Assembly (NCBI GenBank): GCA_965206745.1
Contig: OZ242220.1
Span: 1,120,001 to 1,184,000 of the forward strand
Origin: Nitrosopumilus sp.
GTDB taxonomy: Archaea; Thermoproteota; Nitrososphaeria; Nitrososphaerales; Nitrosopumilaceae
DNA: 64,000 nucleotides
Direction: 5' to 3'
The position numbers and the translations under genes are program-made. Positions 15,685 to 61,864 of the stretch are shown in pieces. The notes beneath the pieces were generated by a model. It was not told the DNA's origin. It did no database searches and saw only the letters and a list, made by a program, of their open reading frames with translations. Numbering within the stretch: position 1 is the stretch's first letter; each line of letters starts with the position of its first letter.

Positions 15685-17274
<1,590 letters not shown>

Positions 17275-56481: not shown

Positions 56482-57495
56482 TTAGAGATTCTCTGTGATT
56501 TGTCGGGCAAACTCACTAGTGCTCTTATCTCCACCAATGTCTTTGGTTTTCACACCGGATTTTACCAAGTCAAAGATTGTGGATTCCAATTTTGCTCCGA
56601 CCTTGACGCACTTGGAATCACCATGTTTGTTTCCAAGCCAATCAAGCATCATCTTAATTGATAGTAAGAATGACGAGGGATTGGCAATGTTTTTTCCTGC
56701 AATGTCAAATGCGGCACCGTGCACTGGCTCAAACAATGCAAATTTGTCTCCAATGTTGGCAGCTGGGGCCATCCCTAAACCGCCGACGACTTGTGAGGAT
56801 TCATCAGATAAAATATCGCCAAACAGGTTAGTAGTAACTACAACATCAAACTGCTCTGGTTGCCGAATCAAGTTCATAGCGCATGCATCCACATACATTT
56901 GTTCAAATGCAATATCAGGATAGTCTGCAGAGACATCAGAGCATGCTTTTGCAAACATGCCATCAGTAACTCGCATCACATTTGATTTATGCACGCATGT
57001 TACTTTTCTCATAGAGTCACGCTGCTTGGCAGTTTCAAAAGCATATTTTGCAATTCTTTTTGAGGCTTTCTCAGAGATTATTCTCAATGCGACAGACGAG
57101 TCGCCCAAGCTGAATTCTTTGCCAGTATAAAGATCTTCAGTGTTTTCCCTCACTATCACCATGTCAATGTCATCACGCAATGCAGGCATGTGCGGGTATG
57201 ATTTTGCAGGTCTGATGTTGGCATACAAGTCAAGCATTCTTCTCAACACCACTATGACATCAGCTGCACTTTCACCAACAGGTGCCTTTAAACAAGCATC
57301 AGACTGTTTTATGGATTCAACTGTTTCATCAGGAAGTGCCTTGCCAGTCTCAGACAGTGCCCTGTCACCTGCAGATAACTTTGCAATATCAAATTTTAAA
57401 TCAAGTTTATCATGAATTGCATCCAAAACAGAGATTGCAGACTCTGATAACTCAGGCCCTATCCCATCGCCGGTAATTAATGAAATTTTATACAT
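56482..57495 (-). CDS. leuB: 3-isopropylmalate dehydrogenase (ICDH/IPMDH family)
   Basis: GDGIGPE, RENTE, NLFGDILSD, EPVHGAAFDIAG; lies downstream of leuA. Confidence 0.85.
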   Translation of the reverse strand: MYKISLITGDGIGPELSESAISVLDAIHDKLDLKFDIAKLSAGDRALSETGKALPDETVESIKQSDACLKAPVGESAADVIVVLRRMLDLYANIRPAKSYPHMPALRDDIDMVIVRENTEDLYTGKEFSLGDSSVALRIISEKASKRIAKYAFETAKQRDSMRKVTCVHKSNVMRVTDGMFAKACSDVSADYPDIAFEQMYVDACAMNLIRQPEQFDVVVTTNLFGDILSDESSQVVGGLGMAPAANIGDKFALFEPVHGAAFDIAGKNIANPSSFLLSIKMMLDWLGNKHGDSKCVKVGAKLESTIFDLVKSGVKTKDIGGDKSTSEFARQITENL

Positions 57496-57536: not shown

Positions 57537-59045
57537 CTATTTTTCATCAAACATCTTTTTGAGCATGATTCTATTGATTGCATCGATGACTGCCTTGACA
57601 GAGGTGGTTACTATATCCTCACCAACTGACTTTGCAGAAACCTTGTTTCCCAATGGATCCTCAACTTTTACTGTAACTTCACACAATGCCCCAGAGCCAC
57701 CAGAGATAGATGCCAAACCGTAATCTTTTATCTTGATCTCAGAAATTTTGCCGGTAATTTTTTGAATCGCATTTAGCGCCGCATCCACCGGCCCGACCCC
57801 GTAGTCAGTCCCGATATGATCCTGGCCATTGATGTTTAGTTTCACAAATGCATAAGGCATGGTACCAATTCCAGTGGAGACTGAAAAACCAGTTAATTGG
57901 ACGATTCTTTCAAGTTCTTTATCACCCAAAACCTCGCTTGCCATAGATAGCAACTCCACATCAGTGATTAGTTCCCCCTGATCACCGAGTATTTTTACTT
58001 TTTCCAAGATCTGTTTTGCTTGATCGTCTGTAGGCGTTACGCCGTACTTCTTCAACATCGCATTCATTCCATGAACTCCCGCATGTTTTCCAACTTTGAG
58101 CCATCTTTTTCTTCCAACCAACTCAGGGCTGATTGGTTCGTAAGTGAGAGGGTTATTCAACACACCATGTGTGTGAATTCCAGATTCGTGTCCAAACGCA
58201 TTGGCCCCAACAATTGCCTTGTTTGGCTGTACTATAATTCCCACAGTCTTTGAGATGAATCTGGATGTTTCATAGATTAACTGTGATTTGATGTTAGTTT
58301 CATAACTTTGCTCATAAGGCAAACATTTGAGTGCCATAGAAAATTCTTCCAATGAGGCATTTCCTGCCCTTTCTCCAATTCCATTGATTGTAACATGAGC
58401 ACATGCAGCTCCTGCATGAATTCCAGACAAGGCGTTTGCAACTGCTAATCCAAAGTCATTGTGACAGTGGACACTTACCGGGAGTTTTGTAGCTTCAATA
58501 GCATCTCTGGTGAGTTCTGCCATGTATTGAGGTGTGGAATATCCGACAGTGTCAGGTATGTTGACTCTGTCAGCCCCTGCTTTTGCAACATCACCGAAAA
58601 CTTTTTTCAAAAATTCCCTATCTGTTCGTGACGCATCTTCGGCTGAAAACTCCACTTGCAGTCCACGCGATTTGCCATACTCTACTGCCTCAACTGCTTT
58701 TTGAAGTGCCTGATCTCGAGTCATGTGAAGCTTGTGCTCCAAGTGGATATCAGAAGTTGCAATAAATGTATGAATGTAATTTAGTCCCACATCAACTGCG
58801 GCATCAATGTCTTTTTTGGTAGTTCTGGCCAATCCAGCAATCTCACAGGACAGCCCTTCAGATGTAATCATCTTAACGGCTGTAGATTCACCATCAGAAA
58901 TTATCGGAAATCCAGCCTCAATTGCATCAACGCCTAACGCATCTAGTTTTTTGGCAATTGCTAGTTTTTGATCAGGCGATAGTGAAACCCCAGGTGTCTG
59001 CTCTCCGTCTCGTAATGTTGTATCAAAGATTCTAACGTTTACCAT
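57537..59045 (-). CDS. leuA: 2-isopropylmalate synthase (LeuA/CimA family, with regulatory domain)
   Basis: DTTLRDGEQ, HCHND, GERAGNA, HESGIH, GVGPVDA; citramalate synthase is not excluded. Confidence 0.82.
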   Translation of the reverse strand: MVNVRIFDTTLRDGEQTPGVSLSPDQKLAIAKKLDALGVDAIEAGFPIISDGESTAVKMITSEGLSCEIAGLARTTKKDIDAAVDVGLNYIHTFIATSDIHLEHKLHMTRDQALQKAVEAVEYGKSRGLQVEFSAEDASRTDREFLKKVFGDVAKAGADRVNIPDTVGYSTPQYMAELTRDAIEATKLPVSVHCHNDFGLAVANALSGIHAGAACAHVTINGIGERAGNASLEEFSMALKCLPYEQSYETNIKSQLIYETSRFISKTVGIIVQPNKAIVGANAFGHESGIHTHGVLNNPLTYEPISPELVGRKRWLKVGKHAGVHGMNAMLKKYGVTPTDDQAKQILEKVKILGDQGELITDVELLSMASEVLGDKELERIVQLTGFSVSTGIGTMPYAFVKLNINGQDHIGTDYGVGPVDAALNAIQKITGKISEIKIKDYGLASISGGSGALCEVTVKVEDPLGNKVSAKSVGEDIVTTSVKAVIDAINRIMLKKMFDEK

Positions 59046-59530
59046 TACACACCACTTCTCTGCAATGCTGCAACACCAGTCCGTGCAACATCAAGTATTC
59101 CAAAGGATCTTGCCAATTCCTCAAATGCCTTGATCTGATCAGGAGTGGCAGTTAATTCCACCATGATTGAATTTTTTTTCACGTCATGGACTTTGCCTCC
59201 ATATGCGTTTGCCAATTTGTTAATCTCCATACTATCATTAGCATTACTGAGTTTTATCTTAAAAATACTAAGCTCACGAAATACTGTCTTGTGCTCATCT
59301 AAACGCTCAACTTTGACAGTGTCTATCATCTTGTCAAGTTGCTTTACTATCTGATCAATTTGTTTTTCATCACCATATGTGGTAATTGTCATCTTGGAGT
59401 AATCAGGATTCTCAGTAGTTCCCACAGAAATGCTATCAATATTGAAATTTCTTGCCCTAAAAAGATGCGTTATCTTAAATAAAATTCCAGGTTTGTTTTC
59501 AGCCAAAATAGAAAGAATCGCCCACATCAC
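59045..59530 (-). CDS. ilvH: Acetolactate synthase small subunit
   Basis: ACT domain ENKPGIL...RNFNIDS, QLDKMID, ARTG. Confidence 0.93.
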   Translation of the reverse strand: MMWAILSILAENKPGILFKITHLFRARNFNIDSISVGTTENPDYSKMTITTYGDEKQIDQIVKQLDKMIDTVKVERLDEHKTVFRELSIFKIKLSNANDSMEINKLANAYGGKVHDVKKNSIMVELTATPDQIKAFEELARSFGILDVARTGVAALQRSGV

Positions 59531-59537
59531 AAATCAC

Positions 59538-61235
59538 CTAAGAGGGTAAGATCATATCCGATAACGAAGTTCCAGGAGCTACGAATGGCAATACGTCTTC
59601 TTCGGGATCAATTGGAATGTCAATTACTGTTGCAACATCGCTGCTCAATGCAGTCTTGATTGCTTTGTCAAGTTCATCCATTGACTGTGCACGGATTCCT
59701 TGTGCGCCATAAGACTCTGCTAATTTAACATAATCAGGACAGCTGTGCTGTTCTACACCAATCATCCTCCTATCATAAAAGGTTCTTTGCCATTGGGCCA
59801 CCATACCCAATGTTGAATTGTTTAAGATAAATACGATTACCGGAATATCTTCCAATACTGCAGTTGCAAGAGAGTTTTCAGTCATGCTAAAGCTTCCATC
59901 GCCTGCAATATCCACAACTGGAACATCAGGCCTTGCAACCTTGGCACCAATAGCTGCTGGGAATCCCCAACCCATGGTGCCAAGTCCAGTAGAGCTAAAA
60001 AAAGTACCAGGCTGTATTACGTCATAGAACAGCGATGCCCACATCTGATGTTGTCCTACCTCAGTAGTTACAATGGATTCTTTTGGTAGCAATTCACGAA
60101 GTTTGCGTAGAATTTTAGCAGCTCCCATCTCACCCGGGTGGATTTTTAGGTTTTCCTTCCAATAATCTTTGGTTTCTTTGACATGCTTTATCCAGGGGGA
60201 TTCATCGGTTTTTTTAATTGCCTTTTGTAAAAGTATCTTTACCATGACTCTAAGATTTACTTTTACATCGCCAACAACTGCAATCTGGGCATTTTGATTC
60301 TTGCCAATCTCGGCAGGATCAACATCCATGTGAATAATTTTTAATCGTTTCTCAAAGGCTTCAAAAGTCCCAACGGATCTATCTGAAAATCTAGTTCCAA
60401 TAGCTAAAACACAGTCAGCTTCTGCCATCATTTTGTTAGCTTCTGCATGCCCATGCATTCCTATTGGACCTAATGACAAGGGATGGGTCTCAGGAAATGC
60501 CCCCTTGCCTTTGAAAGTGGTAACGACGGGAAGCATAAGGGTTTCTGCAACAGATTGTAATTCAGCAAAGGCAGATGAGATGATGGCCCCGCCACCAGCT
60601 AATATGATTGGTTTTTCAGCATGAAGCAACATCTCTATTGCTCTTTCAACATTAACAAGATCAGGATCAGCCCATGGATGATACCCTTGAATTTTAAATT
60701 CATCTGGAAAATCCATCGGTGCCTCATTGGTTTGAACATCTTTTGGGATGTCAATTAACACAGGTCCGGGTCTTCCAGTTTCTGCAATGAAGAATCCTTT
60801 TTTTACAACCTCCGGAATTTCCCCGGCAGTCCTTGGTTGGAACGCATATTTTACAGCAGGATTTGCCATCCCAATAATATCACTTTCTTGAAATGCATCT
60901 CTGCCAATCATGTTAACAGATACCTGCCCAGTTACTGCAATCATTGGAGCAGAATCTGCCTGTGCAGTTGCAATGCCAGTCAAAATGTTAGTTGCGCCAG
61001 GTCCAGATGTGGCAAAACATACTCCGGGTTTCCTGCTAACTCTTCCAAATCCATCAGCCATGTGAGATCCTGATTGTTCGTGTCTTACCAGAATATGTCT
61101 AATGTCACATCTAGCAAATTCATCATACATCGGAAGATTGGCACCGCCAGGCAACCCAAATACTTGTTTGACGCCTTCTTTTTCCATAGCAGTCATCAAG
61201 GCCTTTGCGCCAGTCATATTTTCCATTTTATTCAT
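59538..61235 (-). CDS. ilvB: Acetolactate synthase large subunit
   Basis: RHEQ, TSGPGATN, GMHG, GQHQMW, GDGSF...NN; start set at ATG 61235 because GGTGA (61244-61248) sits 8 nt upstream. Confidence 0.95.
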   Translation of the reverse strand: MNKMENMTGAKALMTAMEKEGVKQVFGLPGGANLPMYDEFARCDIRHILVRHEQSGSHMADGFGRVSRKPGVCFATSGPGATNILTGIATAQADSAPMIAVTGQVSVNMIGRDAFQESDIIGMANPAVKYAFQPRTAGEIPEVVKKGFFIAETGRPGPVLIDIPKDVQTNEAPMDFPDEFKIQGYHPWADPDLVNVERAIEMLLHAEKPIILAGGGAIISSAFAELQSVAETLMLPVVTTFKGKGAFPETHPLSLGPIGMHGHAEANKMMAEADCVLAIGTRFSDRSVGTFEAFEKRLKIIHMDVDPAEIGKNQNAQIAVVGDVKVNLRVMVKILLQKAIKKTDESPWIKHVKETKDYWKENLKIHPGEMGAAKILRKLRELLPKESIVTTEVGQHQMWASLFYDVIQPGTFFSSTGLGTMGWGFPAAIGAKVARPDVPVVDIAGDGSFSMTENSLATAVLEDIPVIVFILNNSTLGMVAQWQRTFYDRRMIGVEQHSCPDYVKLAESYGAQGIRAQSMDELDKAIKTALSSDVATVIDIPIDPEEDVLPFVAPGTSLSDMILPS

Positions 61236-61279
61236 TAAATTTCTCACCATAATTTTAATCTAGTAAATTTTTGAGCACA

Positions 61280-61339
61280 TTATAGCAGAGCAATAAGAGG
61301 CAAATTTTTGCCAAATTTTACTGTTAATTGCATACTCAT
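61280..61339 (-). CDS. Putative ilv/leu operon leader peptide MSMQLTVKFGKNLPLIALL (19 aa)
   Basis: ATG-TAA uORF between the TATA-like TTTATTAG (61368-61375) and the ilvB SD; 7 of 19 codons are Leu/Ile/Val, five of them in the last seven. Confidence 0.55.
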   Translation of the reverse strand: MSMQLTVKFGKNLPLIALL

Positions 61340-61459
61340 TGAAATCAAACAAATAATCAACGTATAACTAATAAAGATTGTCTGAAAAATAATCAGAATT
61401 TGACTCTATTTGATGCATAAGACTTAAACCAATATTTTCTGAACTTGAAATGAACTGTT

Positions 61460-61864
61460 TTGAGCGATAATGCGGAGATCATACAAGTGATAGAGACGTT
61501 GTTTCAAGCAGGAATTACCAAGGATCTTTCAAAACTAAGAGACATCCATCTTAATGATTCAAAATTTTCTAGTTTTAGTGATTTGCCACCATATGATCTT
61601 AAAGATTATCAGACAACCATAGAACTTGAAGAATTAAGATTCATCAGCATATCAGATTATACATATGAAATTAAAAATCCAAAGATCAGCTTGTTTGGAG
61701 AAACAGCAGTTGTTGCTTTAGAATTGATTCAAAAAGGAATGCTGGTAGATAACAAAGCATACACCGGAGAGCACATGGTAATCACTGGGCGTGCAACATT
61801 TGTTCTAGTAAAACAATCAACATGGAAAATTGCGCATATTCATTTATCAAAGATAGACGGATAA
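61460..61864 (+). CDS. NTF2/SnoaL-like protein
   Basis: GETAVV, RATFVLVK...WKIAHIHLS. Confidence 0.85.
   Translation: MSDNAEIIQVIETLFQAGITKDLSKLRDIHLNDSKFSSFSDLPPYDLKDYQTTIELEELRFISISDYTYEIKNPKISLFGETAVVALELIQKGMLVDNKAYTGEHMVITGRATFVLVKQSTWKIAHIHLSKIDG

Follow-up and report, generated by a model that had tools for sequence, protein, structure and literature searches.

A candidate branched-chain amino-acid leader peptide upstream of ilvB in ammonia-oxidizing archaea

How does an archaeon register that its amino acids are running short? The archaeal detection of amino-acid starvation is poorly understood; to our knowledge most archaea have neither RelA/(p)ppGpp nor T-box systems of the bacterial kind, and amino-acid-binding transcription factors serve in the archaeal cases known to us. 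The question is raised by a 64,000-nucleotide (nt) stretch of a Nitrosopumilus sp. genome, here called the window, in whose positions all locus coordinates below are given, and specifically by a short upstream open reading frame (uORF) on its minus strand, directly downstream of which the genes ilvB, ilvH, leuA and leuB follow on the same strand in operon-like packing. We judge it fairly likely that this uORF is a cis-acting leader peptide that would report the supply of charged Leu-, Val- and Ile-tRNA to the ilvB-ilvH-leuA-leuB operon; we favour a sensor acting in cis because a short ORF of translated type stands before genes of the pathway, places the codons of the pathway's end products at its 3′ end, and is conserved in kind and not in sequence, a combination typical of amino-acid leader peptides.

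The uORF (61280..61339, minus strand) runs from ATG 61339 to a stop codon at 61282-61280 and consists of 19 codons plus TAA (ATG AGT ATG CAA TTA ACA GTA AAA TTT GGC AAA AAT TTG CCT CTT ATT GCT CTG CTA TAA), which specify the peptide MSMQLTVKFGKNLPLIALL. A preliminary description of this DNA had drawn attention to five leucines written with five different codons (TTA, TTG, CTT, CTG, CTA), to a final LPLIALL containing four Leu and one Ile, and to a distance of 31 nt between the uORF stop and a GGTGA sequence (61248-61244), all of which we found in the sequence as described. By our own arithmetic, five Leu residues with five different codons would be a ~9% event under uniform usage. The putative regulatory tail, TTG CCT CTT ATT GCT CTG CTA (L P L I A L L; 61283..61303, minus strand), is marked by enrichment in leucine, isoleucine and valine (L/I/V) and by conservative codon turnover. 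The element is unannotated because it falls far below the length limits of gene callers.

Taken alone, the host genome gives a weak signal. The chance level for a single genome was set with the ATG-initiated short ORFs (sORFs) of 8-45 amino acids in its 1261 upstream regions, among which 28 of 1751 (1.6%) have at least five L/I/V in their last seven residues. Promoter geometry was found for 70 sORFs, and the uORF is the sole one among them with an L/I/V tail before an amino-acid gene; the genes behind the other L/I/V-tailed sORFs of the host, judged from their translations without a Pfam check, did not look related to branched-chain amino acids (BCAAs). Scans of the host genome for sORFs rich in His, Trp, Phe, Thr and other residues, and for sORFs with promoter geometry, returned no convincing second leader peptide, and the leader element is a single locus, not a regulon. 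By these counts the uORF is unremarkable on the evidence of one genome, and by the comparisons that follow its recurrence across genomes is far beyond what chance would predict.

The gene ilvB was located in 41 genomes from the genus and the order and in 151 from the family, and 109 of the upstream regions were read. With a uORF defined by an ATG start, at least five L/I/V in an 8-residue window and an end less than 130 nt before ilvB, homologues or analogues of the uORF with a Leu/Val/Ile-rich C terminus were present in 84 of the 109 regions, a count that overstates independence since the genomes are related. When only the first representative per genus was considered, 24 of 36 genera showed at least six L/I/V among the last eight residues; dinucleotide-preserving shuffles gave a mean of 0.25 such genera (maximum 3 in 300 rounds) and the reverse complement gave 0. 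Four further genera of the order included three at 5/8 L/I/V and none at six. A 21-nt motif comprising tail and stop occurred 59 times in 56 of the 151 family genomes and 0 times in a reversed control (the unpublished genomes G112, G113 and G128 are counted in these tallies, but their sequences were otherwise unused), and it adjoined ilvB wherever coordinates were compared.

It is the kind of ending that recurs in these peptides. Tails of the window's genus follow the pattern ..LP(L/V)(V/I)(V/I)LL, those elsewhere in the family read ..ILLLVDLML, ..SLLVDLLL, ..LLLEVLY or ..VLLVVLVL, and the peptides of other families of the order, which are unalignable to that of the window, have the same kind of ending (..LLLLVVLLD, ..PLVLVVV, ..EVLLVILI, ..SLILVIILLL); named cases are MSTTTNYALGVLSLVYLVL in Nitrosarchaeum sp. 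LAS73, ..AVLLPVELVL in a Nitrosotenuis metagenome-assembled genome and MTKVDSTSISSILLQVELVL in Nitrosotalea devanaterra. The preliminary description had proposed looking upstream of ilvB in relatives for a conserved uORF with Leu/Ile/Val enrichment despite nucleotide divergence, and this is what the relatives have, with enrichment kept even where the peptides themselves diverge. The comparative result thus supports a BCAA leader peptide in this archaeal lineage.

The distribution has limits. The uORF was missing in the sampled genomes of genera g18, g21, g24, g28 and g34 and in 5 of 32 genomes of the window's genus. Beyond the order, 53 ilvB upstream regions were fetched from 19 other families of the phylum, and a tail of at least 6/8 L/I/V was found in only one of the 51 that could be anchored, GTG and TTG starts being allowed; seven Methanosarcinales/Methanobacteriota loci had no L/I/V-rich uORF. 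One family outside the order (L129, L130) was alone in having a comparable uORF. There it ends in ..VIVVILK or ..NVVILK, lies ~60-170 nt upstream of ilvB, and is directly followed by a strong hairpin (GCGCCTTAAG...CTTAAGGCGC), then a Shine-Dalgarno (SD) sequence and then ilvB.

The way in which the uORFs differ from one another resembles that of coding sequence. Lengths of the 84 uORFs cluster at 17-20 codons, length changes preserve the frame, and the stop codon is TAA in 60, TAG in 17 and TGA in 7. Their last eight residues comprise 50% Leu, 21% Val and 6% Ile and the remaining peptide 24% L+I+V, composition figures that are partly circular since L/I/V richness was the criterion by which the uORFs had been selected. 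Differing tail codons were synonymous or L/I/V/M swaps in 65-75% of cases, and those in upstream codons in 11-18%; the differing pairs of these classes were 506 of 769 in the genus group and 309 of 415 and 962 of 1490 in two other groups for the last seven codons, and 124 of 991, 168 of 914 and 215 of 2032, respectively, for codons at least ten from the stop, all figures that share the two caveats of selection by L/I/V richness and kinship of the genomes. Judged by these patterns, the uORF is under coding-type constraint. The choice of Leu codons is also skewed, CTA and CTG accounting for 63% of tail Leu codons in the window's genus and 75% in the rest of the family as against 9.4% in 21 ilvB genes of the genus, and the final uORF codon being CTG in 51 of 84 (tails in L001-L110). 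Bacterial leu leaders likewise use particular Leu codons; the CTA/CTG bias could reflect a sensitive tRNA-Leu isoacceptor or the constraint of a CTGTAA hairpin.

Where would such a leader begin to be transcribed and translated? The minus-strand TATA-like sequence TTTATTAG pointed out earlier, 28 nt before ATG 61339, was confirmed; this distal box, here P1 (61368..61375, minus strand), follows a conserved AATC, has homologous elements in relatives (CTTTATTAATTAT / ATTTATAAATTAT) and is a putative promoter. A TATA-like 8-mer starts 45-22 nt before the ATG in 76 of the 84 uORFs with a mode at -36/-37, and that of the window starts at -36. Among host genes with free upstream space, the distribution of TATA-like 8-mers has its peak 36-28 nt ahead of the first ATG, which suggests that leaderless mRNAs are common there. 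Because the spacing between P1 and ATG fits this genome-wide geometry, transcription would start near the uORF ATG, probably within the conserved TGATTTCA (61340..61347, minus strand), which abuts the ATG and is near-invariant in 18 genus sequences; the resulting 5′ untranslated region of ~0-7 nt, perhaps 5-7 nt, would be of leaderless type. Sequence, conservation, coding-type constraint and promoter geometry are in this account matters of direct observation.

A second, proximal TATA-like box, P2 (ATTAAAATTA; 61250..61259, minus strand), lies 24 nt before ATG 61226, a spacing that again equals the genome-wide leaderless geometry; its TTAAAATT is found unchanged in all 18 of the genus sequences, and the box probably acts as a proximal promoter that yields a leaderless ilvB mRNA. 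The box, of TTAAAATTA type, is kept in genomes and genera without the uORF, always 20-25 nt before ATGGA(A/G) of ilvB. The TTAAAATTA-type box is also seen in L012, L015, L019, L031, L033, L048, L057 and L075, and is retained in G+C-rich genomes that have no uORF. Between P2 and the gene lies the Shine-Dalgarno-like GGTGA (61244..61248, minus strand), 8 nt before ATG 61235 and complementary to the 16S rRNA 3′ end GAUCACCUCC; its third position varies among relatives (GGAGA, GGTGA, GGCGA, GGGGA). The 16S rRNA gene itself is in the window (15724-17194, minus strand), is the genome's sole match to the archaeal 16S rRNA model and ends in GGATCACCTCC, so the SD words of the host genome are GGTGA and GGAGG. 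Candidate starts of ilvB are accordingly two, ATG 61235, SD-led on a P1 transcript, and the conserved ATG 61226, leaderless from P2; ATG 61250 was rejected since its frame is not kept in relatives. In six genera P2 is missing and the uORF stop lies 36-39 nt from the ilvB ATG with an SD in between, from which it follows that uORF and ilvB would there have to share a transcript. Among sequencing runs recorded as RNA, none was found to contain the locus. Contigs from three runs whose RNA origin is a guess span ilvB as far as 61235, with no coverage upstream of that point; starts cannot be read from contigs and a gap is no proof, so that these count neither for nor against. One contig (window 60900-61235), from a 98%-identical relative and a run of guessed RNA origin, stops precisely at 61235, at the A of ATGAAT; as a single contig end it has no weight.

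The leaderless geometry of the uORF and the short stop-to-start distances (36-70 nt, with an SD between) would also suit a uORF translated not for sensing, and serving as a leaderless first cistron that loads ribosomes and feeds the SD-led ilvB by termination-reinitiation or by keeping the mRNA open; translational coupling in prokaryotes has reportedly been treated in a paper. Such ribosome loading, however, leaves unexplained both why the L/I/V-rich tail recurs in unalignable peptides of many genera and why the element is restricted to ilvB, and the ilvB of the window's genus has its own TATA-like box with leaderless geometry. We regard this explanation as unlikely.

A bacterial attenuator would be expected to announce itself by its RNA structure, and here the preliminary description stood in part. 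Its hairpin of GGCAA (61312-61308) and TTGCC (61303-61299) is present and conserved with compensatory changes: as GGCAA-AAAT-TTGCC (61299..61312, minus strand) it emerged from RNAalifold on 18 genus sequences, within the uORF and ending at the start of the L/I/V tail, with 90% of cells paired versus 24-47% in slid controls, three of five pairs changed on both sides, and a covariation of 0.312, reached by 1 of 500 shuffles, versus 0.213 in shuffled alignments. The two copies of CAAAAATTT and the AGTAAA/TTTACT pair, on which alternative folds had been proposed, do occur in the window, but they are not conserved features and the alternative folds built on them are not conserved either. The long-range AGTAAA/TTTACT pair appears in single-sequence folds of the window and is not kept in the nearest relatives, from which an SD-sequestering UUACUA:UGGUGA hairpin, seen in single-sequence folds of the window only, is likewise absent. 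A pairing of the 5′ arm of the uORF hairpin with post-stop UGCU/UGCC was also rejected, its 82.5% of paired cells showing no covariation and the observed pairing being reached by 274 of 500 shuffles. On the genus sequences, RNAalifold found no terminator and antiterminator helices that overlap the ORF and exclude each other.

Around the stop codon the window is equally plain. The post-stop spacer (61260..61279, minus strand) has no hairpin and no T-run in the window genome, the 41-nt segment around the stop has a folding energy of -1.2 kcal/mol (z +0.7), that is, no fold, and the earlier statement that there is no U-tract terminator holds, the window having neither a run of four or more T nor a stop-region hairpin; an intrinsic terminator (hairpin plus U-tract) before ilvB was not found in the window. 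The missing U-tract says little, because T-runs are not enriched at the gene ends of the host: 716 gene ends had a run of five or more T in 30.3% and of five or more A in 29.2%. Archaeal RNA polymerase is not known to use hairpin terminators. Among the 84 uORFs, at least four consecutive T follow the stop in 45 and at least four consecutive A in 65. Rfam gave nothing above threshold for window 61100-61500 (best 11-15.5 bits versus gathering scores of 39-249) and no match for 20 related leaders at E up to 0.1.

More structure is found in relatives. The genera without P2 have two independent small recurrent helices and no alternative pairing: TCGAC:GTCGA, which accounts for a conserved Asp/Glu codon inside the tail, and GCTG(T):(A)CAGC, in which the last Leu codon together with the stop forms the 5′ arm and which leads into T-rich sequence and then the SD. 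A G+C-rich hairpin beginning at or directly after the uORF stop is seen in other families. Stop-region folding reached z < -2 in 10 of 28 genus representatives, and some relatives have a stop-overlapping hairpin and then T-rich sequence. When folds were computed with ribosome-sized masks, the stop-proximal hairpin was blocked only by ribosomes on the last few codons and not by early stalls.

These helices, together with the tandem TATA-like boxes, are what a conserved DNA or RNA element with the ORF as its by-product would have in its favour, either as the operator of an amino-acid-binding factor between tandem promoters or as a structured non-coding leader; the small hairpin in the uORF covaries, the TCGAC:GTCGA helix explains the Asp/Glu tail codon in one group, and archaea commonly control amino-acid genes with Lrp-type factors. 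Yet the helices are only 4-5 base pairs (bp) long, the amino-acid class is conserved between families and the nucleotide sequence is not, and the fixed distance from TATA-like box to ATG, the variable type of the in-frame stop, the frame-keeping lengths and the synonymous turnover of Leu codons are signatures of coding, so that this explanation, too, appears improbable. Somewhat less probable again is a small hydrophobic peptide acting in trans, as a membrane or enzyme-binding micropeptide encoded next to ilvB incidentally. Its frame and hydrophobic C terminus are conserved, and some bacterial leader peptides are said to have trans functions, as in the peTrpL papers; but at mostly 14-23 residues with ~8 hydrophobic ones the peptides are too short for a membrane span, their N-terminal halves evolve almost freely (the 11-18% of conservative changes given above), and they are unalignable between families while their place before ilvB does not vary. 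An ORF arisen by chance in AT-rich promoter DNA, for which the 1.6% (28/1751) of host upstream sORFs with such a tail might be cited, is very improbable and is refuted, as far as the comparative data allow, by 24 of 36 genera against 0.25 by shuffle and 0 on the reverse strand and by a motif that, so far as coordinates were compared, is unique to the ilvB upstream region.

For the transcription start, the translation of the uORF, the stalling, the direction of the response and the step that is regulated, we infer the following from sequence for the cis-acting leader peptide. Transcription from P1 would start at or a few bases before the uORF ATG, and ribosomes would load in leaderless fashion. 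When branched-chain aminoacyl-tRNA is scarce, they would dwell on the L/I/V codons within the last seven to eight codons, beside the stop; when the supply is good, they would finish the uORF and leave, and the occupancy of the stop-proximal stretch by ribosomes would thereby set the enzyme yield per P1 transcript. We favour an occupancy model of this type because in the masked folds only ribosomes on the last codons block the stop-proximal hairpin. In the version we prefer, which is post-transcriptional, a parked ribosome would shield the stop-proximal RNA, in many relatives a predicted hairpin with the last Leu codon and the stop as its 5′ arm, from folding or attack, and ilvB initiation or mRNA survival would rise. 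In the main alternative, the parked ribosome would keep transcription from ending early, probably through a termination factor, within the untranslated spacer of 30-60 nt. Within the leader-peptide reading, we give the post-transcriptional step the larger share of the probability, termination a somewhat smaller share, and something else the rest. In the window's genus, P2 would probably supply basal, unregulated leaderless ilvB mRNA. Thus the earlier proposal of BCAA sensing by ribosome stalling finds support for its core in the conserved L/I/V uORF, and none for the alternative folds built on AGTAAA/TTTACT and the CAAAAATTT copies.

Put in full, the proposal is that ammonia-oxidizing archaea sense the supply of branched-chain aminoacyl-tRNA through a leaderless leader peptide, which would be the first archaeal ribosome-mediated amino-acid attenuator and would do without a terminator/antiterminator switch of the bacterial kind. 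The fate of the operon mRNA would depend on a ribosome halted over the final Leu/Val/Ile codons, at a stop-overlapping hairpin or at the spacer, and would be settled by an archaeal route, be it termination of the aCPSF1/FttA type, 5′-to-3′ decay or re-initiation; the element would be of old standing in the order and would have disappeared from some lineages whose genome size or G+C content is unusual. This composite we advance tentatively, with slightly less than balanced confidence.

Several results weigh against the leader-peptide interpretation, in addition to the circularity of the composition figures and the kinship of the genomes already mentioned. The window's genus is without a classical attenuator switch, its consensus fold being one hairpin of 4-5 bp, with an unfolded stop region and no T-run. 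If the stop hairpin and T-rich sequence of other genera were a terminator, simple kinetic reasoning would predict a response of the wrong sign when ribosomes stall early. The L/I/V tract paired with the ilvB SD region no better than shuffled tracts did (mean z -0.12 per genus, 2 of 28 below -2); the duplex of the window had -9.9 kcal/mol and z -0.2, and such pairing was suggestive in the six P2-less genera only (z -1.4 to -2.6). CTA and CTG make up 39% of Leu codons in a crude genome-wide ORF set and so are not rare; a 'rare codon' explanation was dropped, since these codons are rare in ilvB genes and not genome-wide, and their bias in the tail is kept as an observation only. Finally, P2 is more conserved than the uORF and persists where the uORF has been lost (5 of 32 genomes in the genus; g18, g21, g24, g28, g34); with P2 kept and the uORF gone, ilvB would be expressible without the leader, which may therefore matter little in the window's genus.

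How far does the element resemble known systems? We know of no demonstrated archaeal amino-acid-sensing leader peptide. Ribosome-mediated BCAA attenuators of bacteria include ivbL-ilvBN, ilvL-ilvGMEDA and leuL-leuABCD of E. coli and Salmonella, with which the archaeal element shares a short ORF before ilvB or leu genes, a cluster of end-product codons near the C terminus and a preference for particular Leu codons; unlike them it has an archaeal host and a leaderless-type start where theirs is SD-led, and in the window's genus it has no terminator/antiterminator pair or hairpin plus U-tract and no Rfam leader match. In tnaC-type control, a ribosome held at the end of the leader ORF blocks the access of Rho. 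The archaeal element is similar in that its putative regulatory position falls at the very 3′ end of the uORF, at the stop, with an untranslated spacer after it, a layout that would suit a factor-dependent terminator such as archaeal aCPSF1/FttA; tnaC stalling depends on free tryptophan and the nascent peptide, unlike the hungry codons proposed here.

Two further bacterial systems have leaderless initiation. Bacterial ilvB is repeatedly preceded by BCAA-rich uORFs (PMC10272879), and in Corynebacterium the leader peptide of ilvBNC, IlvL, is translated off a leaderless transcript that has no ribosome-binding site (PMC11857589). The archaeal uORF resembles IlvL and the ilvB-II motif as a BCAA-rich, leaderless-type uORF before ilvB with the same comparative signature of in-frame start and stop plus BCAA enrichment; the Corynebacterium leader has a three-hairpin attenuator and an intrinsic terminator, whereas the archaeal one has at most one uORF hairpin and one stop-codon hairpin, with an extra promoter-like box in the window's genus (PMC11857589; PMC10272879). 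The leaderless poly-Cys sORFs of mycobacteria, the 'Cys ribulon', are described as translational attenuators in which stalled ribosomes act post-transcriptionally and no terminator is needed, and they too place a leaderless sensory sORF as first cistron; there, however, the tract pairs with the downstream ribosome-binding site, a pairing not above chance overall in the archaea, and they differ further in the amino acid and in forming a regulon instead of one locus (bioRxiv 10.1101/834739). Full-text literature searches, covering among others the available text of PMC7261190, PMC10219788 and PMC13158618, with supplementary files outside their scope, turned up no description of an amino-acid-sensing leader peptide in any archaeon.

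Should the proposal be correct, translation-coupled sensing of tRNA charging would exist in Archaea too, on leaderless initiation and apparently without hairpin terminators. The locus would offer a sequence-defined system for the interplay of archaeal ribosomes, RNA polymerase, termination factors and RNases on one short RNA, would bear on the physiology of globally abundant nitrifiers, and could make the leader-to-ilvB read ratio a ready marker of amino-acid status in metatranscriptomes.

The gene identities given in the preliminary description were confirmed by Pfam. On the minus strand, ilvB (59538..61235) encodes the acetohydroxyacid synthase (AHAS) large subunit (TPP_enzyme_N/M/C, E 1.5e-41, 7.7e-48 and 4.3e-49), ilvH/ilvN (59045..59530) the AHAS small subunit (ALS_ss_C 4.1e-23, ACT_AHAS_ss 1.4e-21), leuA (57537..59045) an enzyme of 2-isopropylmalate synthase type (HMGL-like 2.9e-86, LeuA_dimer 1.1e-29) and leuB (56482..57495) one of 3-isopropylmalate dehydrogenase type (Iso_dh 7.3e-100). 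The host genome of 1.86 Mb and 41% G+C contains an archaeal 16S rRNA gene and archaeal AmoA, and the nearest named relatives of its IlvB are from Nitrosopumilus (93%), Nitrosarchaeum, Nitrosotenuis and Nitrosotalea.

Other elements upstream of ilvB were seen in passing. Four loci of family f23 (L155, L156, L157, L179) have a long inverted repeat, GTGATGGTG...CACCATCAC, which encloses a conserved TGCCAACTAC and also a short ORF ending in ILVV or VSVL; this may represent a structured leader of another kind, and L155-L157 had no match in Rfam. L160-L163 (f34) and L148-L149 (f42) share a conserved GGATGA(T/G)(G/C/T)GGTGG..(T)ACCCTCCAAGT ~60-110 nt upstream of ilvB, with no Rfam match. The Methanosarcina-type loci L192, L194, L195 and L196 have a conserved GTGAG(T/C)GTGAGA ... 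(A/C)ACAC(A/T)C(C/T)TTACTGGAAA ~60-130 nt upstream of ilvB, with no L/I/V-rich uORF and no Rfam match. In the window itself, the divergent upstream neighbour of the leader is a SnoaL-like gene (61460-61864, plus strand; Pfam E 3e-8), which lacks an in-frame ATG close to its 5′ end and would begin at TTG 61460.

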